From Blasia pusilla (Eukaryota): DNA of 64,000 nucleotides. The stretch spans positions 35,464,001 to 35,528,000 of the forward strand of contig CM114271.1 in the NCBI GenBank assembly GCA_050084515.1, read 5' to 3'. A model generated the notes under the pieces. It was not told the origin of the DNA, ran no database searches, and worked only from the letters and a program-made list of their open reading frames with translations. Every line of letters starts with the position of its first letter. Within the stretch, counting starts at the first letter, position 1. Below, in pieces: positions 11,240-36,930 of this stretch. A program made the position numbers and the translations under genes.

Positions 11240-14200
11240 TGATAGGTAGTCCCCATCCGCTGCTAGGAGGTTCGATATGCTATTCAAGGAGATTTTCGTG
11301 CCGCGGAGGTTGCTACAACACATAGAGCAATCAATGTTGGACTATATAGTAGAGTGATGGCGTGCATGTTCAGCTTACCCATTTGAGTCCCTTTTCCCAC
11401 ACTTGACTCATGTCATTGGGGGCGTTAAGTATCAGGTGGAGCTTAGGCTAGATGGATGTAGCGATGATGACGAGTGTAGACTCCTTGCATGTGTACCATA
11501 TATATGGATATAGGGCGGTTACTTGAGTAGGGATTGTGTGTATGATCCGAGAGATTGTTAGTACCTTAAGTCAGCTAGTTTGGGAGGCTCAAGGTGAGCC
11601 TGAGTGTTGAGTGTGCATGAAGCTAGGTGTGTCATCATAGGATCAGCATTAGCATAGGTGAGCTAGAGAGGAGTGTGAGAGGCTATCGACGAGTCTGAGT
11701 TCTCCAGTTCACCTCGGAGTGGAGTAAGGTATCGAGGGGTTTCAAGTGAGAAAGCACGTAGACTCCCATCCGTGGTTGGATTTTCATCATTGGATAACAA
11801 TCTTGTAACAAGATCACAGATAGACGACATCGGCCATTGAGCATGTATCGTTTCTCGAGTGCAGTATGGTGACACCATTAATCTAGATAACTTAATCCAC
11901 AAGTTCAACACATGCTGCCACTTTTAAGAGATACAGGCCCCTACATGGTTCAACCCTTTCATGGCGTGGAAGAGTTTGTTCGAGCCTTTAGAGGGTCCTC
12001 CGATGGATGACTATATGGAGTTTTGGTCTTTATAATCGGTAGAGATCGATGCCTCAAGGATGTATTGGACTCCATAGTATGTGTCCTCTATTAGCTGCAA
12101 GGCATATGATGGGATAGTGAGAGGGGAGAGACCTACACCATCAGCCCGGGGACTAAATGGAGATGATGGCTGTGAGGGTGGCGAGGTGGCATAGACCTGT
12201 GGTGCTAGAGCACCATCCAATTTTATTCATATAGTGGAGTTATTTCTACAATTGGGAATTTCGAAGGAGCTAAAGAGCTAACAAGCTAAAGAGTGTTTAG
12301 GATATTCAACGGATATCGGATGAGAGTCTGAGAGAGGCATTCACACACGTGCGACGATTGATCATTAATTTCCATATATGGAGTGATGAGGCACATTGAG
12401 TACAATATTGGTACATGTTCTAGATCGGGAACTACGGAGGAGAGTTTGAGATGCTACGTTGCTTCACACGGTGAAGCCCACATTAAAGGTGGTCTTTGAG
12501 TTTTCTAAGCGGATTGAGTTCAACATGAGTGAGGAGCCGGTAGTGACCACAGGACTTTTGTGAGAGTTGACGGGTCCATGAGTCGCAGTATACATCTCCA
12601 CAAGTGCCCCAACGTGCACCAGTAGCATGGAAGCGAGGCAATGTGCCCAAAGATCAGGGTCGGTATCATGAGGCAATGGCCCGTACCAAAATACGTTGCC
12701 CAACAGGGACAGCCGATTGTCTACTCGATGTGTGGTGGGCCCCATAGGTAGAGGGACTTCCCACAACATAGTAGAGGACAGAGGGTGCCTCCAAATGCTC
12801 AAGAGCCACCTAGGATGGCCCCACCATAGTTAACCATTGCCATCGATATGGTCACACTAGAGATAGGTGTTTTGACCTTTTTCGAGAGGCACGTCCAAAG
12901 GTAGCCTGAGGGCCTTAGGAAAGTCATCTTAGTGTAGGTTGGAGAGGTTTTGGTCATGGAGGTAGAGGTCCAAAAAAATTGCCAGAGGAGATGGAGCGCG
13001 TACACAAGAGGCAATGCTTCTCTCACACATTGATCAGTTGGAGCATAGTATGACAACCATGACAATGGCATAGACAAGGATGGAGCCAAACTCAAGAGTA
13101 TCTACTTTGGGTGGCGCCTCCACTAGCTTCTTATCATGAAACATGAAAGGATTACCTTAGCATGGGATTTATGTTTAGTGTTACTCAAGTAGAGGCTTTT
13201 ATGGTGGTGACTCAATATGCTACAAAATGATCGAGCCACTTAGAGTTGGGATAGAGATAGACCCACAGGAGGGAATCGGCAAGTGATAGGCCAAAGTTCT
13301 CCAGTCGTTTATGTTTTCGGAGGCACTACAAACACCATCGAAGAGACCATCGATGGTGCCTAGATGACTAGCGGTGCCCACAAATGGGGTAGGTAGGTCA
13401 GCATCACGAGGAGTAGGAGACGACTCTTATTTTGGCTCAAGTGGAGCTTAAATAAACCACGTTGTTGGAGGTGGCCATTAGGGTGAGCAAACTCTTTTTT
13501 TTCCACCATGGATTTAGCGACAATGGGACTTGGACCAATGGAGGTGTTCCAACTGGTCGCCACATGATGTGACCATAGACACATGGTGGACTTTCCCTCG
13601 GAGCATATGCTCGGGATGTTCCCCACTCAGTCATGGCAGGTTGTGGTGGCAAAGTTGATTGATATGCCAAGTTGATCAGCCATAGAGCAAGCCATATTGA
13701 CACTAGGTGTGGTGTTGTTGGGAAATTGAGTTGGAGTGTTTCGCTTGGTTAGTCCGACCAGTAAAGTGTAACACAAAGCGCATCCGACTTGATTCGGGAG
13801 TGCATCCCTTGACGTCAGGGAGGGTATCGTGTTTGGCATTGGGGTTACAAAAATTGCAAAGGCGACATAAAGCCTTGTCCCTTTTAGATACAGATCTCTA
13901 TTGGGGGCGTGTCACCCACGTAGTATATGAATCAAAAGAAGTAGTTATCAAAGTCCAACCATAGCATACACTAGATAGTACTATGATGCGTACACGTGCG
14001 ATTACACTGGTAGAGTTGTACAATGTGTTGGTGGGGAGTACGTATGGTGTTATATCCACTGTAATTCATCCTTGATTTTTGGGAGGAGACCGTTGTTTAT
14101 CGGCCAGGGTGGCCATAAGATGATGTATGGCCAGATAAGTCAATTACCCGTGCAATTTGCGGGACACGGTGGTCGACCATGTGATGGTAGAGTGACCACA

Positions 14201-14783
14201 TTGGCAACATTCACAAGTGGTTTTAGCTGGCCAAGAGAGTTTTTTGGGGGAAAACACATACGGAGGACATCCTGACGGCGAATAGTCCCATGGAGAAACA
14301 TACTATAGCAAGTGTCAATTATCATGTTGTTGCTATTAACACTTGCTCTTCACCGGTCTCTTCACCATTATGATGTACGAGTTGTGATTTGTAGAGGAGT
14401 GCAGATGACCTCGTGAGGCACGTGTGGAGTTGTGCCTTTATCTTAGAGCAAAGAGAGTCATGTAACAATTGAGCTTTTGGAGTGGCGATGTGGACATCAT
14501 TGGATACCACACCTGTTGTGTGGCAGTGTCAAGAGGAGGGTGTCAAAGTATTAGACCTCTTCAGAGGGATTAGCATGGGATTGGTTGCAGTGTTACAAGC
14601 AAGCATACGGGTGGATCAATATCTTTATGTGAAGAGACATGAGATCACACGGCGAGTCTCATTGTGCCATGTGGCGAGGTTGATCCAGAGATATCATGCT
14701 TTATTTCTGGTATGTACAGTACATGGTATCAGCATACACTACCGGCCAATATTTTGTTGTTGGGGGTTCATGACCTGGTGACG
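11240..14783 (+). mobile_element. Decayed Ty3/gypsy internal region (leader, gag, partial pol with DNMT fragment)
   Basis: 12230-12560 translates (with frameshifts) to ..DESLREAFTHVRRLI..LDRELRRRV.DATLL..PTLKVVFEFSKRIEFNMSEE, homologous to gag at 29650-29957 (..LREAYTRLRRLI..TLRTRVREGVLL..PTLRDVFRIAENI.RNLAEE). Confidence 0.7.
14539..14783 (+). pseudogene. Fragment of a C5-cytosine DNA methyltransferase domain (motif I-II region, DNMT3-like) inside a retrotransposon relic
   Basis: GVKVLDLFRGISMGLVAVLQASIRVDQYLYVKRHEITRRVS..YQHTLPANILLLGVHDL aligns by eye with the DNMT3-type N-terminal catalytic region ([31 protein letters not shown]). Truncated before the PC motif; one frameshift. Confidence 0.7.
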
Positions 14784-14784
14784 T

Positions 14785-15500
14785 ATGCCTCGGTGGCCCA
14801 TGTCGTCCATCTCCCTCCGCGTGACAGTGTCTTTGTGTGCAACCTCATCACCAAACCCGTTGTTTGGTGATGATGATCCAACCATGGATCATCATCCTAC
14901 TGGGAGTCAGGGTGGTTCCTCATCAAAACCCCTCGACACCTCACTCCACTCCGTGCAAATCCACTACCACTGCTCAAACTACCCCATTCTTCCAAACCGT
15001 GGAAGAAGGCCGTGATGATAATTCTGTCTCATACGCTCAAGCACTCAAACTTACCGAGAGTCTCCCACACTCCTCACTAGCTCACCTACACTAATGTTAA
15101 TCCCGTGATGACCTCCCCGGTCTTACGCATACTCAATACTTGGTCTTACCATGAGCCTCTTGAACTAGCTCACCTAAGTTACTTACGCTCTCTCTGGCCA
15201 TACACACAACCCTTGCCTGTGAAATCGCCTTATATCCACAAACATGCTATACATGCAAGGAGTCTACACTCGTCATCATCGCTACACCCATCTAGCCTAA
15301 GCTCTACTCGATACGCAACACCCTCAATGATATAAGAGAAGTGTGGGAAAAGGGACTCGAATGAGTAACTTCAACACGCCCGCCATAAATATATTGCATG
15401 TACGGTCAACAATGATTGCTCCATGTGGTGCAGTAACCTTTGTGGCATGATAATCTCCTCAAGCAACACGTCAAACCCCCCACCAACAGATGGGTGGATC
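14785..15500 (-). mobile_element. Second, inverted copy of the gypsy leader region
   Basis: 15040-15500 is a diverged reverse complement of ~11240-11700 (e.g. atgcaaggagtctacactcgtcatcatcgctaca). Confidence 0.7.
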
Positions 15501-17606
15501 AACCCAGCGTGTTGGGAAGATTGATGTTGTGTGGTGTGTATATGTGACCAGCAAAGTGTATGCACATGACAACATCTTGAGACTAGCCTTTCGCAAATTG
15601 GGGCTTAGCCACTCATAGGGATCAAGGACTAGGCAAGTTAGTTGAAATATTCTTGAGCCAATTAAGTTTCAAGTTAAGGCCTAGAAGCAAGAAAGGCCAT
15701 GAGGAGTTGAGATCGACAATATGCCATGAGACTAGTTGCCAAACGTAAGGGTTAATATTACAACCATGAGATACCAAATGATGGGAGTCAAGATGGGCGA
15801 TAGCCGTGAGATATTAAAAGTGCCGGATAAGGTTATAAGGTGAGTTTGGATAAGTAAAGATGGACACAATCTAACATGAGACTCCCCTGAGTCATCCTGA
15901 GGGTTAACTGGATAAACACAGGTGCACGAGATGCAAACCACATTTGGGTTGAGGACCACAACCAACACAAACAAGGATCCAAAGTGGATATTGGGAAACA
16001 TAGGGTTCCCTTGGACAACCCTAGAATTACATAAGGGGAGGGAGTCTCTATTTCCCTACCCACTTGAGTCTTGGAATAAGGGGTTAACCATATTTCGGAT
16101 TTGAGCTAAGGAATTGTTCAAGCAACACCTTGAGGTTTACAACACGTTATGATTGGGTGAGGGGTTGGCGGAGAATGGTTAGGGGGATTAGTGACTAAAC
16201 CTTCTTAAGGAGTTGATACTCATCTTGGGAGACTCAGAACCAATGAGTGTGGGGAGGCTCCATCGAATCATCTAGAAGACGTGTGAACGCTTGGGTCTCC
16301 AAGACTCAACCCAAGTTTTCCACGTACATGACTCGAGGTGGAGATCTCTTAGACATTGGCAAGAGGAGTAGAGGTTGAATTTTGCAAGGGGATTCAGAAC
16401 ACTATTCAAGCTCACCAACATTTGGAGTACATCAAGGGTTATGTTGGTCATAGCTTGAGGATATAGTCAATCCATCATGACCAGAAATTGCATGTTTCAT
16501 TGATTAACCATGTGGGATTTAGGGCCATTGATCACAATCTAATTGTGATATGAGATGTGAGTCATGTGACGATAGATCATCATGAAATGCAATAAGGGAA
16601 ATGACTTCACTCATAGAAACTTGTGAATTTCACCTCACTCAAAAATTCACATGGAAGATTTGTAGGCATATTCTATACAGATTTTTTGAAAATTTGAAAA
16701 ATAGACATTATTTTCTTGATTTTTTATTCCCAAATTAAAATAGTTAATTTATTTTACTACTTTTCTATCATTGGGTGATAAATATAGATTCCCAAAGAAT
16801 AAAACTTCAACTTTTTTTTCCCATAAGTTCCTTGTATACTTTTTCATTACCAATAAATTTCTTCTTGTTTGCTTCTATATTTATGAATGGCACAAGAAAT
16901 TCAAACCAATGGATGCATACAATGATAAGTGGAAAGAGGTTGAAGGGACTGAACTTTAAGGGATATATGATACACCATTGTACAACTTGTATCTTGCGGG
17001 AGACTAATAAACATGCTGCTCATGAATTCATAAAGTTGTATTGTTATCCCTTATAAAAAATATTTTCTTGTTGTACAATTGCCATGTGTCAAGAAGATAG
17101 GTGTTTGTAGATCAAGAAGATACTCTCCAATAATAATATAGCCGATGGATGAAAATAATCTTAATTTACTATGGCCTCTCAAAACAACTCTACCTCGGCT
17201 ATAAGAATCCAAAATATATCACATAACCAAACTCCAAAACTAGGAAGGAGGTTACAACAATATGTCACGAACCCTCGAAAGAAGGCAATTTCGTCTCATG
17301 TAATTTTTACATTATTTATGGAATTTTTGTGCCCACCATTATCAAACCTTCATTTTGAGATGCACATTTTTCCATTTATGTGAACCGATATGGATTGGTG
17401 TGATTTTACTTCCTTCCTTCCTTTCTTTTATACCTTACTTTGATTGGTACTAGTAATAGGAGCCAAAAGCCTTGTAACAAGTCCACGTATATGGCCTACC
17501 CACATATGTGACAAATATGTGACAATTTTGAGCATACAAGCCTTGTAGATAATTTGGTTTGGAAAGGATGGTTAAAACAAAAATCAATCATAAATTGGAT
17601 TAACAC

Positions 17607-17750
17607 TAGTTAGGACCCGTGAAGGGATCGTGTACGGTCCTCTCATGTTCCCCACCCCAAAGGCCTGAACTTGAATGCCCTCTTTTATCTTTGGATTAAA
17701 AAAGACACATGTCGTCACGAGAAGACGCTCCTCCCTTAATAATATAAATT
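17607..17750 (-). mobile_element. Mini-Helitron-like element
   Basis: CTAGTTAGGACCC.. end and ..TAATAATATAAA end, shared with the copy at ~50811-50990. Confidence 0.45.
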
Positions 17751-19129
17751 ATTTTCTTTTCCACATAAGAAACGAAAACGTCACATTGAAGTTTAGTATG
17801 ATATATACCCTTTATGACTAGAAACCCGATTCCCTCCCATTTCCTTAATTAATTAATTAAATTTAAAAAGGGGGGAAAAAAGTGATTCCAGAGAAGGGCG
17901 TCCGTGCATAGGACACCACAGCCGTAGATCTAGAGGTCGACGGTGGTTAGCTCTACCAATCCACTCAGAGAGAAGCACGACAGAGCGGTACAAAGGCAAA
18001 ATATCTCGCTTGTGAACGACCCCGTCGACTTTAAGTCCAGTCCTTGGACTTTAGAAAAGCTGAAGTACGAGTACCCAGAACCCGTAGGCACGCTACTTCG
18101 TCCGGGAACTAAAGTTTACTTCTACGCAGTCGGAGTCCGAGTAAAGGTTGTTCATCGGGGCGTTTCCCGGACCGGAGGAGTCACCGGCCGGGACGGTTCG
18201 GTGCCGCCTTGGAGGGTTTAGTAGGTACGAAAAACTATTTGCCCGGACGTCCAGAAATTATATAGACATGTGTCAATTTAAATAAAATGTTTAAAGTCTT
18301 TGAATTTTTAACTGGTTAATTATACTATTAATCAAACACGTGGGGGTATAACGAGTAGAGGTAAATTTATTTTTATCAGAAGTGAAGCATTGAGTGTGAG
18401 TTTGTCTTCATCCAATGCCAAAGAGGTGTGCAATCGACAAGAATACTTGAATTAAAATCATGGTCATTTTATGCCAGTGCATAGCATAGCACGGGCGGTT
18501 GCTTGCAATTGGGAGTGTCGAATTAAAAACAAAATATTTGATCAGGATTAGTAGGAAGTTGAGGCTATGAGTTTAGTGGCCAATCCAATGCATGGAAATA
18601 ACTACAATATTAAATTATTATTTTTAGACAAACCATTCTTATAAATCGAGAAAGGGAAAAAAATCATCCTTGGAGGATCTTACACTCTTCACCCTTGAAA
18701 ACCCCCACAGAGCATTCTACCTTCCTTATCTATTAAACCACCAACATATGCGTACATATTAGTCATATGTACGCATATGAGAAAGAGCTAAAAATTCTTC
18801 CCGGACATTATTATTGAAATATTTGAAGCAGATCTTATTTCAAAAGAGATTTGATTTGATGGGGTACTTTTCATATGTTTTTTGAAATAACGGTGGTGTG
18901 GTATGACACCTATAAATTCACATGTTTTAGAATTGCAAATAAAAAGACGGTTCTCTCTAAGTTGGAGCGTACTTAACACTATTGTTGGCGAACAAAACTG
19001 AAGAAGGTGGTGACAGTTGTGGAGGCATCAACAAATTGAAGATTATGGATTTATCAACCAAAGGTGAAGGGGAAACTCTGACACTCATTATTGAGGCAAA
19101 GGGGCGAGGAAAATTTCAAGGTAAATCTC

Positions 19130-19400
19130 TTCTCGAATGTTCAGGGTAAATCTCTTGTAGTCGATTGGATTCCTACTCCTTGACAGAATCGGCCGAGCCT
19201 TCTTCCTTGATCTCCGCTTGAGATGCGATCTCGAGTTTCTAAAGGTTGCGAAACTCTTGACTCCCAAGCAGCTCACAGATCTCTTCCACTTCAAACACAT
19301 CGTCTAAGGTGACCGAAAGCTATACCAGGGACAGATCCTCGAGCCGTGAAGCCGTATCATTCAGTAGTACTACGAGACAGTTTGGACATTGGAATTTTCA
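19130..19400 (-). pseudogene. Possible LRR (RI-like) pseudogene fragment
   Basis: Minus frame LLNDTASRLEDLSLV*LSVTLDDVFEVEEICELLGSQEFRNL*KLEIASQAEIKEEG has LxxLxL-like spacing with internal stops; weak. Confidence 0.25.
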
Positions 19401-19716
19401 GCAGCGTCCAGATTTTTTTCCTCATGGCTTTTTCTGCTCAAAATCCGAGTGCACGAAGTTGCTCTGGTCCGAATTCAGCCTCTTCGCGATTCAATGAATG
19501 GTCCATTGATTAACACAGAGAGAGAATGTACTCATTAAGTATCTCCTCTCTTTCCATCGAGTTTGCTGCTACGACACTCTTCCCTCTCATCTCGATTTGG
19601 TTTTGTGGATTGATTCATTGTGATTCCGAAGTGGTGTTGGAATGGTAAGTGTAGTGGTGTGCGTGTTTATCTCTGGTCGTACAGGTTGTGTAGTTTATCT
19701 TTGGTGGTAGCCTTGC

Positions 19717-19895
<179 letters not shown>

Positions 19896-20065
19896 TGTTT
19901 TTAGTCCCTAATCTTGAGCAACCAGCTTAGGGACTCTAACCACTTTGAGGTTGGAAACATCGGGCAAAGTTTTGTGTCAAACACCGAGCAAGAAATTAGA
20001 GAGAAATTCAAACCAAAGCCCAGAGAGAAAGACTTTTACTTTTGTTTTTTTTTGTTTTTTTTTTT

Positions 20066-20251
<186 letters not shown>

Positions 20252-20439
20252 TTTTTAGTCCACGGGAAGCCATCTGGCTTATGGGACCCCTTCCACATAT
20301 GTGAAATTGACATCACTTCCGACATGGCACCTTCACATCTAGAAGTTCTCACTCAGGAGATTTGGTTTTTGTTTTTTTTTTGTATTTTTCTTTTTGTGAA
20401 GGCCTAGAATTTTATCCAGATTTTTAACCTGGGAGCATA

Positions 20440-20705
<266 letters not shown>

Positions 20706-20881
20706 TTCCTATGTGCTCTGCTCAAGAATGAAAAAAATTTCTCGTCCCCTCCAATTTTTCTGCAGCCCTACGCGGGGCAACTTGTATTGCCTCGCCCTGC
20801 CCTCTTGAGCATTACCTATGTTTTTTTCCATTCATGTTGTGTGGATTGAGCAACATTGATCTCGCACGCTCAATGTGTGTA

Positions 20882-21490
20882 TGCATTTGGTGCTTGAGGC
20901 AGTGCCTTTGAACCCTTCAACGACACCCTTCTTCCTCTCTATCCTATCTCCCCTTGAGACTCCGTTATTTCTACTGCACTTCTGTGGGCGAGACTTCCCT
21001 GCCAAGTTTCACAAGAATTTGAACCGGATACCCGTAATAGACAAAAAATTACTAGACACACTGATATATTTTTTTAAGAGGAAGATCACTCCATCAGCGG
21101 CAATAGTCGTTCAATTGCAGTCATTCAATTGCAGTTTTTTCATTCGAGCTACAATGCTGGTTTGCTTTATTAAGCCCTGAAGAGTATGTTTGCATTTGGT
21201 GCTTGAGGCACTGCCTTTGAACCCTTCAACGACACCCTTCTTCCTCTCTGTCCTATCTCCCCTTGAGACTCCGTCATTTCTACTGCACTTCTGTGGGCGA
21301 GACTTCCCTGCCAAGTTTCACAAGAATTTGAACTTGATACCCCTACTAAGACAAAAAATTACCAAATACATTGATAAATTTTCGTCAAGAGGAAGATCAC
21401 TCCATCATCAGCGGCAGTAGTCGTTCAATTGCAATCGTTTAACTGCAGTTTTTTCATTCAAGCTACAATGCTGGTTTGCTTTATTAAGCC
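20882..21490. repeat. Tandem duplication, two copies of ~310 bp
   Basis: tgcatttggtgcttgaggca...ttattaagccc occurs at ~20882-21177 and ~21192-21491 with high identity. Confidence 0.95.
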
Positions 21491-22714
21491 CCGAGGTCTA
21501 ACGCCTGTTCATTTCATTCATTCAATCCTTACGAGCAAAGAACTTTGACGCCCGTGCATCGTACAAGCTTTCTTACTAGTCTTAACTAAAAAAAAAAGAA
21601 ACTTAATAAACAAATGAGATAGAAAGAAAGGAAAGGTTGAAACAAAACTGAACTCCGGGAACAAACATGACATGCTACACAATTTAAAAATAGATGCCAT
21701 AAGAGAGAGAAAAGCCCAAATCCATTTGCTACTCGCTTTGCAGATAAAGAAAGAAAAAATTTACTTCCTCACGAGAGCGCTTCCGATGTGCAGCGGGAGT
21801 CCGCCGGAGGTGCTGGCAAGGGAAGGGCAGGAGGGCGGGCAGGACAGGTCAGCACGCTAACTTGACTGACTCGGAGTCCCAGTCAGACTTGAGTGCGAGT
21901 ACCGGTCGCTGCTTAGCCGAGAGCGGCGGGCGGGCGGGACAGGCAGGACTGAGCTCGGGCAGCGCTGTCTCCCGAGAGGAAGAGCGACGGAAGGGAGGAA
22001 GGCGTGCGACGACGAGAGGAGAAGAGTGCAGTGCGGGGACAGAAGAGAGTGAGGAGGCGAAGGAGACACAGAGAGGGAGAGGGAGAGAGAGGGAGGGAGG
22101 GACCTGCGAGAGGGAGAGAGAGAGAGACGACAAGTCAATCGGAGGGGCGCGGGTTAGTTCGGGCACAGGGGAAGAATCGATAAGGGGGCGTCGCGAGGGT
22201 GCGAGATTTGCAGAGTTCGGCGGTGATTTGATCGGGGAAGTTCTTGGCGGCGAGGAGATTGGACGATTCTACGATACGCGCGCTGCCGTTTCTTAGGTTG
22301 GGAGATTTCATGGTGGATTCGTGAGAATCTAGGTGCGGTGCAGTGTCGATCATCAGGATCGGGCCGGCCGGGACCCGTGGGCTTTCTTCGCCGACGGAAG
22401 GCAGCGCTGCGCGGTTCTAGGAAGGGGGGGGAGAGAGAGCGAGAGAGAGAGAGCGGAGGAGGAGAAGAAGGAGCTGGAGGGGGTTATCAGTCGGATTGCG
22501 GTTCCATTGTTTCTTGTCGCGCCATTCCCGTTGCCCCACAGACAGTCCAGAGCGTCTCATGGTGGGACTTTGATTCCGTGGACACGTAGAGGTTGTTTTC
22601 AGGTGCATTGGCAGTGGTTGGTTTGGTTCGTGGATACCGGTTTGCCAGTCCAATTTCCACATTTGTGATTCGTACGATTGTCGCGCCAGACGAGCGCAGA
22701 CGGAGACCAAAGCG

Positions 22715-22948
22715 ATGGTTTGGTGGGAGCATTATGGAATTTCCGATGAGGTGATGGGAACCTTCGGTCCCATTGCTATCTATTGGATATATGGAGGTCT
22801 GTATCACATGCTTCCCTCTTTTGACCAATATCGCTTGCACAGTCGTAAGGAGGAGGAGCAGAAGAACTTAGTGCCCATATCCACCGTCGTCAAGGGAGTT
22901 TTGCTGCAGCAGCTCTGCCAAGCCATCGTGGCCCTCATCATGTTCTCG
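22715..22948 (+). CDS. SBH: Sphingoid base (sphinganine C4) hydroxylase, exon 1
   Basis: MVWWEHYGISDEVMGTFGPIAIYWIYGGLY..YRLHSRKEEEQKNLVPISTVVKGVLLQQ is the typical plant SBH N-terminus; phase-0 donor GTGAGT at 22949. Confidence 0.95.
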
Positions 22949-24438
22949 GTGAGTTCTCGTCACGACATCCTCTGAGGTATCCGAGCTCTGGTGCTGCATG
23001 TGCGAGGAACTTTTGGAATGTCCAGTCCTTCTCACCCATCATACATTTGCGGAATTTCTCTCTTCTCAGAGCACCACCGTTCGTTGCATGTCATATGTCG
23101 AGTCGACGATTAATACAAACAGTTACTCTGGCGAGAAATCCATTTTCCAGAGGACTGTAAACAGTCACTGGTTGAGGCCTATGGTTGAAGGCCCCCTTCT
23201 GAGCATGAGCGGTTGTTAGTGGCCCTGTGAAGAAACGGTTAGATGCTGTGAAGACCTCACAAGTTTAGGGGCCTCCTGGTTTCTGTGGATTAACATGGCT
23301 TCGGTTTAAACTGAAGGTGTCTGCGTGCGGTCCTGAACCTGATGGCCTCTGGCAGATCGTTTGAGCTGGGCTATCCTCCTGTCCCGATTTTACTTAGGGG
23401 CCGGTCCAACTTCCCACTGATTACTAACTTGCGAAGGGAGATCACATTCTGTGGATTTTGGTCTGAATCCGACAAGCCAATGGCTCGAGATCTCGCTCTG
23501 TTAGTCTCAAATTCGTGGAGCCTTTCATTGTTGTGACAACTACAGTCTCGAGGCTGCCTGGAAGTTATGGTCGATACTCATCTCTACCCTGGAATTACTT
23601 GACAATTACGGTTTCCCCGGATTACCCCTGCATGGTTGGATCAGTGTCTAAAGTTTCATGAGATACAAGATTAGGATAGCTTCATGTGGCAATGGGGATC
23701 CTATACGAAGCAGAAGACAGAATGAGACTGCTGCCACTTCATTAGTACGGAATGGCCAAGTTTCACTTCACAATGGATGTCTTGATGTCCAGAAGTTTAT
23801 CGTTGACTGAACCTTGGAATTACTCAGTGCGTTAGCAAAGTATTTCGTTGTGGTTCCCTCTATGAAGGTCAAATTATTCGTCTGGTATAGGACAGGGAGA
23901 TGTACCAGTATTTACGGCCAACATGTGCTGTGGGATGTCTGTCTTTTGGAGTTGAGATTCTCGTTTCACTTTCAAAACTCCTCCTTTCACTTTCAAAACT
24001 CCTGTACGATGCCTCAAGTCATCCTTGTCTTCCAGCAGACATGTGCCTATGGAAGCACGTCCAATAATCCGGTTCTTGTCAAGCCTGGAAATTGTGTGAT
24101 ATCTATATGTAGGTTAAAGTTGTTTTACTGTAAAGTCAGTGGCACACAATCATGAATCTGGGTTGCTTAGCCACTAGTTTCTCGCACATGGGTGGAGCCG
24201 AATCGCGTCTGTGTTCAGCCTAGAAGGATGCGATTTGTCTACCAAAATTTTTAGTAGATGGTTCCTGCCCTATCATTGCCTAACTTTTACAATATCAGAT
24301 GGGACCTGCTGCTCTGGAATATGCTCCGAAGATGCCATGTTTGATATGATGATCGAGTACTGCCTACCCTAGTTTATTTTGGGATTACAAGAAACATGTT
24401 CAAGTGGCTCTTTCTCATTCCTCTGTGGTTGTATGCAG

Positions 24439-24984
24439 TTGACAGCGACACCAGATGTGCATATTGTTCAGCCACCGCTGCTCGTGCAAGTCGGACAAGT
24501 CCTTGTTGCTATGCTGGTCATGGACACTTGGCAGTACTTTGTACACCGGTACATGCATATCAACAAATTCTTGTACCGACATGTACACTCACAACACCAT
24601 CGATTGGTTGTGCCTTACGCATTTGGGGCATTGTTTAACCATCCTCTCGAGGGTCTTCTTTTAGATACTGTCGGAGGTGCTTTCTCCTTCTTGTTGTCAG
24701 GGATGACCCCACGGACGTCGGTCTTTTTCTTCTCGTTTGCAACGATGAAAACAGTGGATGATCACTGTGGGCTATGGTTGCCAGGAAACCCATTTCATCT
24801 TCTGTTTCCAAACAACACTGCTTATCATGACATCCATCATCAGCTACATGGTACCAAATATAATTTCTCGCAGCCCTTTTTCAACATCTGGGATAAAGTG
24901 CTCGGGACGCACATGCCCTTTGCTCTGGAGAAACGAGCTGATGGTGGGTATGAGGCCAGACCAACTAAGGAGGGAACTGATTAA
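24439..24984 (+). CDS. SBH: Sphingoid base (sphinganine C4) hydroxylase, exon 2
   Basis: Acceptor tgcAG at 24437-38, in frame. His boxes HRYMH, HSQHH, DDHCG, HDIHH and NFSQPFF..WD of the fatty-acid hydroxylase family. Spliced product is 259 aa; intron is 1490 bp. Confidence 0.96.
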   Translation: MTATPDVHIVQPPLLVQVGQVLVAMLVMDTWQYFVHRYMHINKFLYRHVHSQHHRLVVPYAFGALFNHPLEGLLLDTVGGAFSFLLSGMTPRTSVFFFSFATMKTVDDHCGLWLPGNPFHLLFPNNTAYHDIHHQLHGTKYNFSQPFFNIWDKVLGTHMPFALEKRADGGYEARPTKEGTD

Positions 24985-26519
24985 GGTCTTCATGGCAGCT
25001 GTCTCATTTCTTCATGCCTCTGCAGAGGAGTTCTACAGATGTCTTATCATATATCATTCATGAGGTGTTTTGCTTTTGTTCCGCTTTTAGCAATGTTGTC
25101 GAGCTGATTCGGAGACTTGGCTGGCTCAGCTGTGTCACTCAGCTTAAATTTCACAATTTAGCTGTGCTCTCCTGAATTGCAGAGCATAGAATGGTGCTCC
25201 ACACATTTAGTTCTCTCCACATGCGGGGACTGATGCTTTTCATAAGCAGTCTCTAAGAAAATGGCAGAGGTGTAAGAGTTTAGGATAACTGTGCATTAAA
25301 TAGATGTATCAGTGGAAAAATGTCCTGTGTACAGTACAGTGACTTCGATAGCAGAAGGGCACTTGAAGTGATCAGAATCTTTGTCGGGGCATTCTTCCTG
25401 TAGCTGACAATACTTGACATGCTGCATGGTAGTCAAGAGTCTTCCATAACAGCCCAGTCACCAAGTTTTGTACACGTACATCTTCTCTGGTACAACTCCT
25501 GTAATTTAAGATTTTTGGGAAATACGTTAGCTCTAAATCATCTTCACTATCTTGACAAGTGGAATCATTTTGAAGAGATGGGTTGATGTCTTAACTGTTG
25601 GCTCCTCCATGAGCTTATACTGGTAGTGCTGGATATATATTGGAAGATTTATGACTCATGGGAATGGTGCTATGAAGCTGACTAATTAACCAACATTTCC
25701 GCTGATCGGTCTCTGACTTGCCTCTTGGACATGCCATCACCAGCAGTGGGGCCCGAGATATTCATTCTTTGTCTTGAGGGGGTAGTAGGGGATTGCTCAT
25801 ACCAGCATCCCCCTGACCTATGATAGTTCAGAATATATGGTCTCAACAACTGAAGACTATTCATAAGAATGGGTTGTCATTGGGTGAGGGACATGTCAAT
25901 GGATATGGTGAACAGCAATAACTCAGTTTAAAGTCTTAGTATTTATTTTCTCAAATACTCGGGAAACTCTCCTGGGGATGCTTGCAGTGGATGTTTATGA
26001 ATGAAATTATATGTTGTTTCAAATTTGGTGTGCTGCTACATGGAATGGTCGTTGGCTTTTGTACCGTTATATTTCGATTTAGCTTCTCCCACGATAGCCA
26101 GGACTCCCTCATTTGAACTCTTTATTGCATCGTTTTCAGAGGCTATTGTTTTTAGGCTTTGGATCTCAGGTCGAAGTGGCTTGTGTCATCTCTCCCAATC
26201 TCTGAATGCGAATTGACGATCTCATCAGCTCATTTCCTACTGGGCGATTTTGAGGCCCGGTTATAAATTTTCTGTCCTTGTGCTCACTCAGTGGAGATCA
26301 GCACACATAAACGAAGAACATGATTCATGTTATTGCACACATAAACAATTGAGATTTGCTCAAACTTTTCTTTCTCTTGCTACATAAACAATTCTATCCC
26401 TTTTTAGTCAATTAATTATCAAAGGGTTTGATCGATTTCAAGAGCATATTTATGAGAGCTTGCACCAAATCATCTTTTCGAACATTCTCTTTCAGGCATC
26501 CTCTGACATTCGTTGAGTT

Positions 26520-27016
26520 GGTATGCGTTCATGTGTGGGTACTAGAGAGGGGCGTGGCAAATCCTCTTATTCTTCCATTTTGTCTTCTTTGAAATATATG
26601 CTCGATAGCTTTGCGGTTACGTCTTGGACTTCCCCATCTTTCTCTATTAGGTGTGCCGAATTGTATGCGGGGATCCCATTAATATCACGGGTATCAACAT
26701 TCTTTGATGTGCATATTGTGAAGAACGAGCGGCTACACATGATGTCATCAGAGAGGCAGTAGCATCCGTGGCTCGTATTGCAGGATACACTGTTGGGTAA
26801 GAGCAACTCCAAGTTTTACCTTCAACCATACAAGAAACCTCTCTTCGGAGAGTTGATCTTGTTATGTCTCGAGGTGGATTCCGGAAACTAGGTGTTACGG
26901 TGGTTATTGATCCAACACGTTCTGACTTGGCGTATCGAGCCGCACTTACCAAAGGTTCGGCGTCCGAATCTGCTACAAGAATCAAGGAGTTAAGTTTTGC
27001 TGTGAGACATGCGATT
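26520..27016 (+). mobile_element. CRE/RLE-type non-LTR retrotransposon 3' fragment, left part
   Basis: Translates to a decayed Zn finger then EERAATHDVIREAVAS..RRVDLVMSRGG..VVIDPTRSDLA..SATRIKELSFAVRHAI, a restriction-like endonuclease domain; the frame resumes at 34050. Confidence 0.75.
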
Positions 27017-29957
27017 TGTCACGTCTTTTAGGATAGATCGGTGAGATCTAGTAGAGCGCTTTCGTGAGTAGTGGAGGACACGTTCAATAGGTCGAGGATG
27101 ACCTGCTGAAGCTTCGTTTCGGCTCATTTGGAACCATATTGAGAAACTTACTATTTTAGTTAAGTACCATATTGAGTATATGATCGACTTTCTATTTTTG
27201 GTAAATGACTTTTGACCTCCTACATCTTGGGAGAGGGGAGAAGCATACCTCAAGGAGAGAGAGCTTGAGAGCTCATTATCTTTTTGTTGAACCTCTTGGC
27301 ATGAGGCGGCGGAGCTATGCTCCCTTGCCTTATGAGTGTAACCCAAGTGTCTCATTAGGACAGTGGGTTTGGTTTGACACGAGAGAGAGTGCACACTTTT
27401 GAGAGCTATGGTATGAGATGGTGTAGAGAGAGATTGGATCTTACTTTATAAAGAGAGAATGAGAGAGTGAGAGAGCTTCATGGGGGAGCTCGCTGGTCAC
27501 TCGCTGTTTTTGCAGGTTGGGGATCGTGTTCCCCGTTCAGCGGCTCATGGGAGTGCTCACCGGAGCAAGGGCTGCTTTGATTGTTCTTTGCATTTGCCGA
27601 TTTTTCGTGTGGAAGAGTGGCGCGCGGAAGCGTTGCCCAATTTGTGATAGGGATTGATCATGGGGGTGGGTTGCCCCATACCGGTGCTCCCGGGAGCACC
27701 ATATAGCTTGCTGATTTGTATTTTTACAGGTTTTACATTTTGGTTGGGAGAAATTAGCGCGGAAGCGTTGCCGAATTTTGTGTAGGAGAAAGAGACATTG
27801 GACTTTACGAAAGTCCCCTTCAGTTTTTACTAGAATGTCCAATTCCAAATATTTTTTGACGTTTTTGTAGATCGTGAAGCTGTGCGCGTTGTGCAACAAA
27901 CGGTGCGCAATTTGGAGTTGCGAGTAAAAAGTTACGGTCAATCTTGCAAAATTGCCATTGCTGGGCGATTTTTAGGGTTAAATTGTTCAAACCCTAAACC
28001 AGCCGCCACGTCGGCGGCGGCCGTCGCCGTCATAGTCACCGTTACCGGTCAACGTCGATGGTCAACCATCACCGTCAACGGTCCACCGTCCATCGGCCAC
28101 CGTCGGCCGTTGCCCAACGTTGCTCGGAGCTGCATTCGACCGTTGTCCACCCTTTGGTTGCCATTGTGGCCATTACGAATTGGAGGGTCTTCCACGACCA
28201 CCGTTGATTCTTTGACTTGCACCGCCACCACGTACTTTGGTTTGGCCACCACCGTCATCGCAGTTTCGTCATCAACCAGTGATGGTAGATGACCTCCGAT
28301 TATGGTGTTTGAGTTTTGATTTCATGCTGCTAAGTTGTGATTGGTAGCCGCTCGACGACGATCGAGTACCGTGCCGTAACGCCTGTAGCCGCAACGCGCC
28401 GCCGATTGCCACGCCGTACCGCTCGTAACCCCACCGCACCGTCTCAATCGCGGAGCCGCACCGTCATTGTGGAGCGGAGTGTGGGTTTATTGTTGATTGA
28501 GGAGGGTATGCCGTCGAGTGCCGCATCCCACCATCGAGGGCCGTGCCGTTCGTAGCCATTCCGTGCCGCCTACAACGCCGCACCATTCTACTGGAACCGC
28601 ACTGTCCATCAAGGAGTTTTAAGCAGCGTCAGTACGGGAAGAGTATGACTTGCTGATTGGAGGAGTTGTCTCCAGGACCGAGTTGGGGTCGGAATTTGCA
28701 ATTGATGAGAAGTGACATTGACATGTGTTCAGGTTACCCATTCTGGTCCTTTATCCTGCACGTGTGAAGGATTCTGGGATTTGGGTAGTTTATTTGGGGA
28801 TATTGGGTGTGTGGATGCTGAGAGCATCATTTATGTATGTGGTTTAGGGGACATAGACTTGTGTGGGATGTCCAGAGTTGAGGGTAGGTTGTCGATGAGA
28901 TGATAGCCTGGTCGATTTTCCGCACCACGCCGCTTGTTGCGGCACGTTACACGTCTCAGGGAGGGAGAATGTAGATCGAGTGCCGCATGTTTGGGATGAG
29001 TGATTGAGGGATTACTCGCGAGGTTGAGAGTGATCGTATGAGAGGGGCACGAGGGCCATCACGGCGTCCTTTTAGGATTTTGAGAGGCGAGGTAGTGGAC
29101 CTGAGAGTAGCTCTGGAGGGTTTACCGGGAGTGGTACGAGGTTTCGAGGGTCTCCACGTGAGAGACCACCTCGATCTCCTTCTGTGTCGTCTTCAGACGA
29201 GCGGGAGCGTGTAGAGGAGTTTGTAAGCACATCGCCACACATTGTGAGTGGTCCTACCAATTGGGCGTACGAGATGGACGATCAGGGTAGAGGACCGCGC
29301 AGGGTTTCAAGTGCAGCAGGCACGATTTCACAGCAGAGTTTAGGAGTTGGTGCGACTCCCAGCGGGCCAGGAGCTCTAGAGAGTTCAACCCATTTACAGC
29401 ATGGAACGGTATGTTCCAGCATTTAGAGGGGGTGCCCATGGACGATTACCATGAGTTCTCTCAAAGATATGCACGTCAGATCGAGGCGTGGAGGCTCTAC
29501 TATGACCCACATTATGTATCATGGACGGAGCCATTCCCAGATGAGGAGGAGCAGTCAGGAGAGGCTACTTCCTCTTCCACTAGTGACGTTTTAGGAGGGG
29601 TCACTCGCACGGGAGCAGTTGCACCGTCTAGTCGGGTTCGTCCCAGGTTGAACCCTGTGGTTGAGTTCTTTGCTGAGTTGAGGGCGAGCTACCAAGGGGT
29701 ACGGACGCAGAAGTTGCGGAGTATCCACGAATTCCAGAGGCGCCCGGATTAGAGATTGCGTGAGGCTTACACTCGCTTGCGCCGGTTGATCAACGTCACT
29801 CAGGGGTGACAGAGGCTCAGGCTATCCAATCATGATACGTGATGCTGGACTGGACCCTACGGACACGCGTGCGGGAGGGGGTGCTTCTTATGAACACCTC
29901 CCCTACGTTGAGAGATGTTTTTAGGATCGCTGAGAACATTTAGCGCAACCTGGCGGA

Positions 29958-30573
29958 TGTCACATCTGAGTAGCCGATAGGCCGAGATCTATCGTGGATA
30001 GGGCGTAGGAGCCAGCGGACTATCTTGAGTGTAACTTTGTCCCATAGTGTCGGATGAGGTTGAGGATAGGTCCATTGTGTCAAGAACGTCGTTTCTGACG
30101 ACTTTCATGTTGAGGTCTTTTACAGCCGGGTGACTTGTTGACCAGGTCACCTGCCCCTGGTAATTTGTGCGCGCAGGTTACCAAGGGAAGGGCTATTTTT
30201 AGGAGAAGAGCCTTTTGGCTCTTCCCAACCTATGTAAGAGAGGAAGATGGCTTTCCTAAGCCATCTTTCTCATGTTGGGCCGTTGGAGCACCTCCCTTGT
30301 ATCTGTGTGAGCTAGGACTAGGGTGCTAGCGTCCGGATTCCTTGATAGCACAGGGTGGACGAGGCTCGATATGCCGATGTAGATTGAGGAGTGGAGTTTT
30401 AGGCCGGGTGTGCCGTTTTTACTACTCTTTATTTTGTTGAGTGATCTCCATGTATATGTATGAGTTGATTTTTGTACATGTGTGCATCGATCCGTGTATG
30501 GGGAAGATCGGTGTTGTGTGGTGTAGATGTGACGAGCGATGTATGTTGTGTAGCGATATGTATGCGCACGACA
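29958..30573 (+). mobile_element. Nested solo LTR in gag, 4-bp TSD CGGA
   Basis: TGTCAC...GCGCACGACA; CGGA at 29954-57 and 30574-77. Removing it restores gag NLAEESVATMG. Confidence 0.85.
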
Positions 30574-31819
30574 CGGAGGAGAGCGTAGCCACCATGGGTT
30601 CTGGGTGAGAGTAGTCACGATTGACTGCACTACTTGTGCAGCAACGTGGACTCCGAGATAGGTCGACTGTGGCACCAGGAGCTCAAGGAGGATACCGGGA
30701 GGCTGTGCCATGGATGACAGGGGTAGAGGACCGCATAGGTTTTCGGGTGCTGTAGGCACTATAGAGGGGGGCTGGTATTCTGGTAGGAGAGAGGAGAGGA
30801 AGAGAGGAAGAGAGGAGGGTCTTTTTAAAAAAAAAGGGCCAAATCTGCCTCCTCTCTTCAAAACTTTTTGACATATAGAGACCTGCGCCTTCATATGCGG
30901 CTCAGCAGCAGCCGCCTACTATTACTTGTTGGTCATGTGGTGGAGCCCATCATCAACGCGATTCCACTCGTTAGGATCATGGACGTGTGCCTCCGCATGG
31001 AGGAGGAGATTGTGCTCAGAGGTATCTGAGAATAGTCACACTGATACCTCTGAGTTATCAGTGTGACTATTCTCAGAGGTATGGTCATAAACGCGCTAGC
31101 TGTTTCAATTTACCTCCTGAGTTACGTTCGGACTGAGGGCCTGAGAGGGCACCAGAGCGAGTAGCCGGTCCGGGTGGGCTAGAGATCGTGCACCAGGTGG
31201 TCCCGTTGGGGGCCGAGGAGCTGGAGTTTCCCGACAGGGTGGTGGAGCTCCCGTGGAGGAGGTGGAGTCCTACCACCTAGACACGTCGAGGGAGATGCTG
31301 GGCTTGAGGCTAGGATGGCTGCTCAGATACATCAGCTATAGGAGCAGATTGCCGCTATGGCATTGAGATTAACCGATGCCGGATCCGTGGCATTGACATC
31401 ATATGGAGTATCTAGAGATATGGAGGATCCTGGTTGGATGTGCGGGGTTGCCTAGATGGAGGCCGCCGCAGTTGTGATGCGTGGAGCAGCCGCAGAGTTG
31501 GATCCACAGCGGTGGAAAGCCACAAAACAGACTAGTCTTCCTCAATGTTTCACGTTGTCCAAGGCGATGAGGACCCCATTGATGGGTCCTGATCAGAGTT
31601 TGTGGAGAGTTGGTGATGTTATTGGTGTGCAAGCACGGAGGGCGATGGGAGAAGCAAGTGCGACGACTCCTATTGTTGATGCTCAGGAGGGGCATGTGTC
31701 GAGCACGTTGTTGGGGGCAGCCACCATTGTGTACCGCGCTTCTTTATTTTTTGCTTCCGATGTTATGACGTTGGGGGTACGCCCGCCAAAGCTTTTCGGC
31801 TGGCCGCTACGCTATGCAG

Positions 31820-33115
31820 AGTACGCGTAGTGCCGCATCATTTGCAGAGAGCACGACTAGTGCATCATGCCCACGAGGAGTTGGGTCACTTTTAGGTGAA
31901 GCGGACGTACAGCTTGCTCTAGGTTCAGTATTGGTTGCGAGGCATGCAGATTGACGTTCAGTAGTTTGTTGCCAGGTGCATGGTGTGTGATCAGGTCTGA
32001 GCATCGTTCAATGCTTCGACTCCACAGTTGCATCCATTACCGATCATGGGCTTAGGGTATAGATGGAGTTTGGATTTTGCAAGACCTTTGCCTTTGACGG
32101 AGCATCACAATCGTTATGTGTTGGTGATGGTTGAGTCGTTATGTGTTGATCCACTTCTCGAAGTGGATCGAGTTGATTGCATTGCTTGACAAAGCGAGTG
32201 AGGGAGTAGCTTATGCCTTCCTTGACGGAGTGATGAGTCATTATGGCGCACCGGATGAGGTGTTGACAGACTAGGGTACTGAGTTTCGTGGTGAGTTCCA
32301 GGCTTTGTGTGATCAGGCGCTGATCGACCATTGCACGACTTCGCGAGATCATCCTGAGGCGGATGGATTAGCAGAGAGAGAGTTGTGGAGACGTTGAAGA
32401 GGGGTTTACGCAAGTATGGCTTGGAGAGAGATCACCTAGGAGATTGGGATCTCTAATTGCCCTGATTGGCGATGGGATACAGATTCAGCAGGCAAGCATC
32501 CTTAGCGTTTTTTTCACCGTACTTGCTACTTTATGGCCGAGAGCCAGATTTACCTACGGCCATTCTTCGAAATGTTGGACCTTGATGACCCAGATGTATG
32601 GATGCGAGCATGTTCTCAAAGGGCTGAGTTATTTCGGAGAGTGATGCCCATGGCGTTCGAGAACTTGGCGATTGCGCAACATCGGGATACGTTGAGGTAT
32701 GCGACTATTCGGGGTGGTGGTTATCGACCAACTATCCAAAGATTTCATCAAGGAGATTATGTCTACTTGCAGCAGACGGCACCGACGACGTTGGATGTGA
32801 CTGCGGGCGCACTATCCTGAGAGTGCGTGACGTTTTGCCATCCGGTATTCTCTTGTTGGAAGGAGGCAATGGTATGGTATGATATGGAAGGACCATGTGC
32901 GTAATTGTGCGCCATGTCACCTTCCTAACATTGATGGTACAGTAGATCCGAGCTTAGCAGTAGTTCCTGCAGGCTTGCATTGTATGTTGTGTGGTTCTGT
33001 CTGTGGTGCGGCCACGATGCTAGTCTGTGATGGATATTTGAGAGGTTGGCATATGGCATGTCTGACGCCACCTCTCACTAGGGTTCCTCGGGGATGATGG
33101 ATGTGTCCCATATGT
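31820..33115 (+). pseudogene. Integrase with C-terminal PHD finger (degenerate)
   Basis: RVVP..HAHEELGHF..RCMVC..HFSKWIELIAL..HPEADGLAER..; ends [44 protein letters not shown]. Multiple stops and frameshifts. Confidence 0.85.
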
Positions 33116-33437
33116 ACATAGAGGAGATACTAGGTAGGTTTCGATTCTGACTTTTTCTGTGACATGGATGAGAGGAAGGCGACTAACGATGGGGCCACAT
33201 GAGCACCCGACCTTCTTGCTCTTAGCGTCCGAGAGATGTATGTCATGGTAGGTAGGGATAGATGGCTATCTGGAGTTAGAGGGACCTAACTACCAACTAG
33301 GGGGGCGATTGGAGATATTTTAGTACTTCTTGTCTCGTTGTTTGGATGCCACGAGTTAGCATGGGATCGTGCGTGTTTGTGTGTGTGTTCGGTGACAACG
33401 ATTTATGTTGTGTAGTGATGTGTATGCGCACGACAAC

Positions 33438-34049
33438 TGTCACGTCTTTTAGGATAGATCGGTGAGATCTAGTATAGCGCCTTCGTGAGTAGTGGAGGAC
33501 AAGCTCAGTAGGTCGAGGATGACCTGCTGAAGCTTCGTTTCGGCTCATTTGGAGCCATATTGAGGAACTTACTATTTTAGGTAAATACCATATTGAGTAT
33601 ATGATTGACTTTCTATTTTTGGTAAGTGGCCCTTGACCTCCTACATCAGGTCAAGAGCCAAGGAGGTGACTTGGGAGAATAGGTTACCATGGAGAGAGCT
33701 TGGGAGAGAGGAGGGGTATATCTCAATGAGAGAAAGCTTGAGAGCTCATTATCTTTTAGTTGAACCTCTTGGCATGAAGCGGCGGAGCGATGGTCCATTG
33801 CCTTATGAGTGTAACCCAAGTCTCTCATTAGGAGAAGGGGTTTGGTTTGACATGAGAGAGAGTGCACACCTTTGAGAGCTATGGTGTGAGATGGTGTAGA
33901 GACAGATTGGATCTTACTTTAATTTGAGATATTTTAGTACTTCTTGTCTCGTTGTTTGGATGCGATGAGTTAACATGGGATCGTGTGTGTTTGTGTGTGT
34001 GTTCGGTGACAGCGATGTGTGTTGTGTAGCGATGTACATGCGCACGACA
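33438..34049 (+). repeat. Complete LTR (~612 bp)
   Basis: TG..CA ends; homologous to 10403-11017 (minus), 27017-27448, 33309-33435 and 44590-45012 (minus). Confidence 0.9.
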
Positions 34050-34330
34050 AATTGATGGATTTACTCCTTTTGGAGTGGAAGTATTCGATCATTTATATGT
34101 GTCTTTTGATACTTTCTTGAAAACATGTGCTCACCACTCCCTTGAGAATTATCACCTTGCCCCTTTCCGTAGTCCTTCTCTTTCTCTATAGTTACTACTT
34201 ATTTTTGGCAATGTACCTCACTAGCCTTACAACGTGCCCAAGCCTTGGCATTGATACGTTGTGCGGAGGTGGTGGGGGGTCACTCGCCTTGTCATCTGTT
34301 CACGTCTGACCAACCACCAATGTTGTTGTC
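34050..34330 (+). mobile_element. CRE/RLE-type non-LTR retrotransposon 3' fragment, right part
   Basis: IDGFTPFGVEVFDHLYVSFDTFLKTCA..SLALQRAQALALIRCA continues the frame from 27016. Confidence 0.75.

Positions 34331-36759: not shown

Positions 36760-36930
<171 letters not shown>

Follow-up and report, generated by a model that had tools for sequence, protein, structure and literature searches.

Decayed Gypsy retrotransposons in Blasia pusilla and a lineage whose intact relatives carry a DNA methyltransferase and a PHD-finger integrase

Two decayed retroelements at the locus

The window analysed here is a stretch of 64,000 nucleotides from Blasia pusilla (assembly GCA_050084515.1, contig CM114271.1, positions 35,464,001 to 35,528,000, forward strand). 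It contains two decayed retrotransposons, which we call relic A and element B. Relic A carries the start of a DNMT3-like DNA methyltransferase (DNMT), and element B carries a PHD finger at the C-terminus of its integrase. An earlier note, made from the sequence letters alone, had suggested that both belong to one Gypsy lineage whose autonomous form encodes the two domains together. We conclude that A and B are very probably old, non-functional copies from two related families within a single green-plant Ty3/Gypsy lineage, one of the published Gypsy-DNMT3 kind. Nothing in the window is functional.

The window is eukaryote-like and rich in decayed repeats, and the longest open reading frame (ORF) between 10 and 36 kb is 219 aa. 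We ran Pfam on the 242 stop-free ORFs of this interval that reach 50 aa and then on all six frames with stop codons read as X. The stop-free ORFs of 10-36 kb contain no retroelement domain (only a sub-threshold PHD and an FA_hydroxylase domain were found), so reading through the stops was needed. In what follows, P and L numbers denote database proteins and DNA loci, respectively, and P0002 is a hypothetical protein of Sphagnum fallax. The parts of relic A are as follows.

About 11.25-15.04 kb, plus strand: relic A as a whole, with gag, a CCHC knuckle, protease traces and a DNMT3-like start
11252..11703, plus strand: 452-bp segment upstream of the gag, with an inverted copy at 15040-15494
11901..12086, plus strand: gag core, 44% identical over 62 aa to B at 29336-29521 (tblastx) and 49% to P0002 residues 18-58
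12832..12894, plus strand: CCHC zinc knuckle with its first Cys gone, matching B at 31065-31127 (tblastx)
13487..14124, plus strand: decayed protease and post-protease region, matching P0002 residues 396-529 (E 1.7e-12, 6 stops)
14473..14778, plus strand: DNMT3-like N-terminus (motif I region), open for 102 codons, with a profile match at 14530-14724
15040..15494, minus strand: inverted copy of 11252-11703, at the truncation point of relic A

An exhaustive HMMER search of 1.84 billion proteins with the ORF at 14473-14778 gave 47 relatives at E<=1e-3 (best 1.5e-20, 64% identity), and every one of them matches the N-terminus of the DNMT profile of Gypsy polyproteins. That profile has a single match in the six frames of the window, at 14530-14724 on the plus strand (E 1.4e-16, positions 3-67 of 342), and P0002 residues 679-739 align to the same remnant at 48% identity (E 2.6e-11). 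A word-indexed search with the ORF among proteins of 880-2800 aa returned no match. Upstream, the protease profile matches 13776-14124 (E 1e-4 to 2e-3), and P0123 is collinear with both the protease region and the DNMT remnant on one strand. The knuckle matches the zinc-knuckle (ZnK) profile at 12847-12894 (E 0.002), its ligand loss being judged by eye. Relative to the canonical DNMT motif set (I, IV PCQ, VI ENV, VIII, IX and X), which is complete in relatives, the window keeps the motif I region only.

The two segments that bracket relic A are 76% identical over 455 columns in inverted orientation (blastn). The upstream one (11252-11703) has no match in a search among proteins and is unrelated to the repeats of element B; candidate origins are an inversion or a second copy in reverse.

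Element B is bounded by repeats, and its parts are these:

27,017-34,050, plus strand: element B as a whole, with gag, knuckles, integrase and a C-terminal PHD finger
27017..27448, plus strand: 5' terminal repeat 'a', 82% identical to 33438-33921
29297..29803, plus strand: gag core, matching P0002 residues 5-132 (40% over 169 aa, E 1.4e-30, 1 stop)
30879..31178, plus strand: zinc-knuckle region of the gag, matching P0002 residues 212-283 (40%, E 2e-11), with a ZnK profile match at 31059-31154
31803..32950, plus strand: integrase, with H2C2 at 31818-32015, the DDE core at 32028-32546 and the C-terminal domain at 32575-32950
32978..33118, plus strand: PHD finger at the integrase C-terminus (family profile E 2.1e-17)
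33308..33436, plus strand: first copy of repeat 'b', 91% identical to 33922-34050, with a G-rich tract just before it
33438..33921, plus strand: 3' terminal repeat 'a' (blastn self-comparison)
33922..34050, plus strand: second copy of repeat 'b', 129 bp, completing a-coding-b-a-b

The repeat layout of B in the blastn self-comparison is thus a-coding-b-a-b. Its Gypsy hallmarks are a gag with CCHC knuckles and, further downstream, an integrase that has an H2C2 zinc domain and a DDE core. The integrase family profiles match at 2.6e-22, 6.9e-32 and 6.8e-31, although the coding sequence is scattered among three frames and interrupted by several stops. With X in place of each stop, Pfam reports Integrase_H2C2 at 31845-31997 (1.3e-10) and PHD (PF00628) at 32981-33115 (2.3e-5; 24.8 bits, the cut-off being 24); the stop-free ORF at 32831-33094 alone gives PHD at 22 bits, which is below threshold. 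The finger itself is decayed, with seven of its eight zinc ligands left (the fourth Cys is now Tyr) and one stop codon. In the PHD alignment, 8 of 9 relatives have the full set of eight ligands, and in the remaining one, P0007, the seventh position is Ala.

Pfam in six frames and the family profiles give no signal for protease, DNMT, reverse transcriptase or RNase H within 27.4-33.3 kb of B. The leader at 27450-29250 has no matching protein, and inspection of B's ends revealed no convincing target-site duplications. Element B is a deleted, dead derivative. By the same Pfam and profile searches, neither A nor B displays the pol order protease-reverse transcriptase-RNase H-integrase (PR-RT-RH-IN), since RT and RH are found in neither. 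The earlier note had described a DNMT-bearing relic at 11.2-14.8 kb and a PHD-bearing element at 27.0-34.0 kb that had lost its PR-RT-RH stretch, and had stated that no copy in the window has both domains; each of these descriptions holds. The long terminal repeats (LTRs) that it saw recurring are the 'a' repeats, and four copies are present (27017-27448 and 33438-33921 on the plus strand, 10554-11013 and 44591-45012 on the minus strand).

Intact relatives and the nature of the two domains

Both domains occur together in a single chain of 2358 aa, P0007, which has a protease (663-711), DNA_methylase (953-1137), RVT_1, RNase H, H2C2, rve and PHD (2300-2344). When the DNMT region of P0007 was searched among proteins of 1296-4127 aa, 105 proteins were collected. 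Domain profiles detect an integrase C-terminal domain in 78 of them, 75 of which continue for at least 60 residues beyond it, and the other 27 end earlier. A PHD finger is present in 71 of the 75 DNMT-bearing polyproteins with this much room past the integrase.

A DNA-level search with 13 aligned gag-PR-DNMT proteins led to five loci (L001-L005), two of which (L004 and L005) run off the ends of their contigs. All three loci that are long enough (L001-L003) have an ORF1 with gag, PR and DNMT, one in-frame TAG, and a 1047-aa ORF2 with RT, RH, IN and PHD. Their ORF2 proteins are 90-95% identical to P0004 and 64-66% identical to P0001 and P0003, in which B's integrase finds its best matches. The pol order PR-RT-RH-IN is present in P0007 and in L001-L003. 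The plan of the lineage in intact relatives is gag with two CCHC knuckles, protease, DNMT3-like domain, RT, RNase H and an integrase-PHD. These sequences support the co-encoding of a DNMT and a PHD integrase in the lineage.

In all four loci that span the ORF1/ORF2 junction, the TAG is followed by CAA-TCA or CAG-TTA, with the same frame on both sides. The junctions (TAG plus CAR-YYA) are at these positions:

L001:3489-3497
L002:5083-5091
L003:4661-4669
L004:2081-2089

CAR-YYA is the context of leaky stops in plant viruses, and we take the junction to be a leaky-stop context too. With the DNMT upstream of the TAG, the enzyme would lie on the abundant, Gag side of the stop.

L001 (9285 bp) is a Gypsy-DNMT-PHD element of eukaryote type and is complete. 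Its contig was assigned to the genome bin of an uncultured cyanobacterium, and the bin is most likely contaminated. The two terminal 127-bp stretches of this contig are identical, as in a collapsed LTR assembly.

The DNMT occupies one of two positions among the 105 proteins: PR-DNMT-RT (its named sources being Sphagnum and Closterium) or RH-DNMT-IN (its named sources being the green algae Haematococcus and Monoraphidium). In a quick tree of 104 domains, the RH-DNMT-IN enzymes form one clade with an SH-aLRT (approximate likelihood-ratio test) support of 99; it comprises 76 rows, including one of unknown layout. A separate oddity is P0115 from Closterium sp., a gene model in which a Copia-type RVT_2 is joined to a stretch resembling the DNMT of the Gypsy elements (41% identity, covering 37% of the query). 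The model may have been fused across nested insertions, or else it may represent a Copia element with a DNMT.

A profile of the L001-L004 methyltransferases was compared with PDB. The top 29 matches are DNMT3A, 3B and 3C (1e-10 to 6e-8), with M.HaeIII (7e-6), M.HhaI (1e-4) and plant DRM (2e-3) further down, and the motifs align in canonical order. This ranking suggests a DNMT3-like methyltransferase. The residues that we take to be motifs I (FxGxG), IV (PCQ), VI (ENV), VIII, IX and X are invariant across the 13 gag-PR-DNMT proteins, which are 44-73% identical to one another.

For the PHD of P0001, the best solved match is KDM5A PHD1 (1.2e-15), followed by CHD4, KDM5B PHD1, Lid, ATXR5, UHRF1, PHF21A and AIRE. 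The fingers of these proteins (PHD1 in KDM5A and KDM5B) are readers of the unmodified H3 tail. By analogy, the PHD of the lineage may read the unmodified H3 tail as well, which we regard as a lead.

Selection was assessed with the ratio of nonsynonymous to synonymous substitution rates (dN/dS), which is 0.07-0.13 for DNMT pairs among L001-L004 and 0.05-0.06 for PHD pairs among the intact relatives. Only the L002-L004 pair is unsaturated, with a dS of 0.26 and a DNMT ratio of 0.13. These values point to purifying selection on both domains in the intact relatives.

Kinship of the two relics and the rest of the window

The case that A and B belong together begins with their gag regions, where the 62-aa match (11901-12086 against 29336-29521) is part of a collinear tblastx chain with an E of 2.4e-20. 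The integrase core of B retrieves 11 proteins at 61-67% identity, 10 of which have a Pfam PHD. P0002 is the sole named protein among the 11, and it carries gag, DNMT and integrase; it is also the protein that both relics match best. Taken alone, this one named hit would point to a moss close to Sphagnum as the source, and so to a moss-like genome among the hosts of the Gypsy-DNMT3 kind. It is collinear with A through the gag (49%), the protease region and the DNMT, and with B through the gag, the knuckles and the integrase (73-79%). In a gag tree, A, B, P0002 and P0159 are mutually nearest, but the tree is weak and A fills 15% of its kept columns. From these comparisons, A and B read as related families of one lineage, not as copies of one family.

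The earlier note had described homologous Gag proteins and inferred an autonomous form with both domains. The former is confirmed by the gag chain above, and the latter is supported by P0007, L001-L003 and the 71 polyproteins. The missing PR-RT-RH stretch is where it had expected a DNMT, and in this lineage the domain lies between PR and RT. It had proposed counting the elements with both domains and computing dN/dS for each domain, for which the values are those given in the preceding section. It had also said that its idea would fall if full-length relatives never carried both domains or if the relics fell into unrelated clades. The opposite of the former is seen in 3 of 3 loci and in P0007, and on the latter A and B group with P0002, albeit in the weak gag tree.

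It is unlikely, in our judgement, that A and B come from different families, A's having a DNMT without a PHD and B's a PHD that is never joined by a DNMT, with their gag likeness reflecting distant Gypsy ancestry; in that case the pairing of reader and writer would not apply to these two copies. A DNMT-bearing, PHD-less subclade does exist (P0031, P0032 and P0041), a PHD-bearing Gypsy element of Chlamydomonas is drawn without a DNMT (Gypsy-7a_cRei, going by the legend in PMC9940879), A and B have no nucleotide similarity beyond 'a'-type repeats that do not belong to A, and the weakness of the gag tree leaves room for such a split. However, P0002 is B's nearest named relative and has its DNMT segment upstream of an integrase that is 73-79% identical to B's, while the P0004 group, B's closest intact relatives, consists of elements with a DNMT in ORF1. 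Of the 162 proteins gathered, moreover, only P0002 matches the gag region of A. It is less probable still that the DNMT-like ORF of A is foreign to the retrotransposon, i.e., a fragment of a host DNMT3 pseudogene or a chance match beside a gag relic. Pfam does not report DNA_methylase at this ORF, and a PDB search with the ORF alone puts DNMT3A in all of the top ten places (at motif I) at a non-significant E of ~0.75, both of which would suit such an origin. The host-pseudogene or chance reading is nevertheless contradicted by the 47 of 47 relatives that match the Gypsy profile and by P0123 and P0002, each of which is collinear on one strand with both the protease region (13.5-14.1 kb) and the DNMT that follows it (14.5-14.7 kb).

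Several observations weigh against our preferred reading of two related families in one DNMT-and-PHD lineage. No copy in the window has both domains, and what ties A to B is the 62-aa gag match and the poorly supported gag tree; the repeats that flank A are unrelated to B's. The DNMT remnant of A is ~65 residues long, with motif IV onward undetected by the family profile in the window, and Pfam is silent on it, the whole of 10.5-15.3 kb being without a Pfam match even with stops as X. The P0031, P0032 and P0041 subclade has the same domain order and a full integrase with a different short tail in place of the PHD, so A's own family may have lacked a PHD, and among proteins of the PR-DNMT-RT order with room past the integrase, 3 of 6 have one. 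The gene model of P0002 was built over a decayed copy and may be chimeric. The intact relatives come from environmental contigs and are 50-65% identical to B in protein and ~66% in DNA. As for selection, dS is saturated in all pairs except L002-L004, and this pair stops short of the PHD.

Base composition was uninformative about methylation. The coding strand has an excess of G over C (skew +0.11 to +0.26) in the relics (8-14 and 18-34 kb) and in intact L001-L003 alike, which makes the skew a trait of the family rather than a product of decay. The observed/expected ratio of CpG is 0.55-0.85 and is similar in relics and intact relatives, so neither CpG depletion nor skew can speak for methylation here, and statistics of the repeat-induced point mutation (RIP) type and of CpG gave no discrimination.

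Other remnants of B's family and further features are spread over the window. Three of them are repeat or element fragments:

10405..11013, minus strand: solo 'a-b' unit of B's family ('a' at 11013-10554, 74%; 'b' at 10530-10405, 86%; blastn)
34588..34918, plus strand: fragment of a further copy of B, just outside B, 90% identical over 331 bp to B 31257-31587
44591..45012, minus strand: truncated 'a' copy, 72-77% identical to the other 'a' copies

The first of these is adjacent to relic A, but its 'a' copy has the opposite orientation and is therefore not A's own LTR. Most plausibly, the unit is a solo copy left behind by B's family.

At 7522-8275 on the minus strand is a decayed piece of another integrase C-terminus from the same superfamily (profile match at 7588-7875, E 2.4e-12), which stops just short of the expected PHD position. 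Another decayed Gypsy element, with RT, RNase H and integrase, occupies 39461-42692 on the minus strand. It is ~28-31% identical to the DNMT-PHD lineage, and profiles detect neither DNMT nor PHD signals in it. Repeats of ~1 kb are found at 37160-38159, 40229-41247 and 45034-46043, one copy being located between the integrase and RNase H of that element.

Between the two relics, 24373-24981 on the plus strand is open for 203 codons and contains a full Pfam FA_hydroxylase domain (1e-24); it is likely an exon of a host gene. Long simple repeats with a dinucleotide period occur at 19720-19892, 20066-20247, 20591-20705 and 36761-36928 and are 90-100% identical to one another.

Known elements and the possible biology of the pair

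The closest published system, described by de Mendoza et al. in 2018 (PMC5890265), is KnitGypsy-Dnmt3 of Klebsormidium nitens. This Ty3/Gypsy element has a Dnmt3-like domain that is not rearranged in its polyprotein, conserved catalytic residues, a Ka/Ks below 0.2 and DIRS-like A-coding-B-A-B repeats. The same paper reports that retrotransposon DNMTs carry out de novo CG methylation, and it puts forward self-methylation of the element's cDNA. Element B shares the A-coding-B-A-B layout, relic A has gag, PR region and DNMT N-terminus collinear on one strand (65/342 profile positions), and the DNMT dN/dS of intact relatives (0.07-0.13) compares with the published value of <0.2. In contrast, the window copies are dead fragments and their closest named relative is a moss protein, the comparison with KnitGypsy-Dnmt3 being one of descriptions. 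A PHD or other histone reader is absent from the main text of PMC5890265, although its figures may already draw a PHD; one of its supplements has neither a PHD nor a KnitGypsy term.

PHD fingers are described as a common accessory domain of Chlamydomonas Gypsy elements (PMC8557442). The legend in PMC9940879 lists GAG, PROT, RT, RH, PHD and INT for Gypsy-7a_cRei and no methyltransferase. That element resembles the present lineage in being a green-lineage Gypsy LTR element with a PHD in Pol, but its PHD is named before INT and no DNMT is listed for it, whereas here the PHD follows the integrase and a DNMT is present. Chromoviruses have a histone-tail reader on the integrase C-terminus that is thought to steer integration (10.64898/2026.05.21.726589; 10.1101/2021.11.30.470311). 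The position of the fused reader is alike in both groups, but in the present lineage it is a PHD nearest KDM5A/B PHD1 and not a chromodomain, the predicted mark differs, and there is a DNMT.

EpiLTRs, presented as new in a 2026 preprint (10.64898/2026.05.21.726589), combine a chromodomain, an adenine methyltransferase (DAM) and a DNMT, and so likewise place a chromatin reader and a DNA-methylation writer in a single LTR retrotransposon. Their DNMT groups as the sister of DNMT4 and occupies the 3' end of pol, their reader is a chromodomain, and they have the adenine methyltransferase; the lineage described here has a DNMT3-like writer, a PHD reader and no DAM. The preprint also names 'streptophytes (Gypsy-DNMT3)', and the word 'PHD' occurs in its text only in the acknowledgements. 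In the searchable literature text, the term 'Gypsy-DNMT3' is found only in PMC5890265 and this preprint.

The animal enzymes DNMT3A, 3B and 3L also bear comparison, as their catalytic domain is the closest solved relative and they follow a similar logic, the methyltransferase being joined to a reader that in their case recognises the unmodified H3 tail. That reader is the ADD domain. In the retroelement, however, reader and writer are in separate parts of the polyprotein, across a stop codon in the closest intact relatives, and neither an ADD nor a PWWP domain was seen in it.

The window copies are thus decayed members of a known streptophyte kind, Gypsy-DNMT3, and the idea of a reader-writer retrotransposon is already partly in print (Gypsy-DNMT3 in 2018, PMC5890265; EpiLTRs in 2026, 10.64898/2026.05.21.726589). 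The near-constant PHD partner, the leaky-stop layout and the RH-DNMT-IN-PHD order were not found in the searchable literature text, which does not cover figures. As the kind itself has been published, the novelty is modest.

In live relatives, the parts could work together as follows. ORF1 (Gag-PR-DNMT) would be made in bulk, and the TAG in its CAR-YYA context suggests occasional read-through, which would add RT-RH-IN-PHD. The PHD might then dock the complex of integrase and cDNA on H3 tails whose K4 is unmodified, at a distance from active promoters, a tethering that we model on the chromodomains of chromoviruses at H3K9me. The DNMT3-like enzyme could carry out de novo cytosine methylation of the new cDNA or of the insertion site. 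Both PHD-guided integration and self-methylation are what we infer from the domains.

More broadly, and tentatively, a Gypsy clade of green plants and green algae may have kept a pair of KDM5-PHD1-like finger and DNMT3-like enzyme under selection in two layouts (gag-PR-DNMT, leaky UAG, RT-RH-IN-PHD; and RT-RH-DNMT-IN-PHD), a proposal that we regard as possible but as somewhat less probable than its negation. If it is true, the PR-DNMT-RT layout would have its methyltransferase made in Gag-like excess. In the RT-RH-DNMT-IN-PHD layout, writer, integrase and reader could leave as one protein, integrating and methylating at the same nucleosome. Retrotransposons with a DNA methyltransferase of their own raise the question of whether a parasite writes the very mark that hosts use for its silencing. 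A near-constant PHD, with purifying selection apparent on both domains, would turn the Gypsy-DNMT3 kind from a curiosity of one species into a widespread, testable module.

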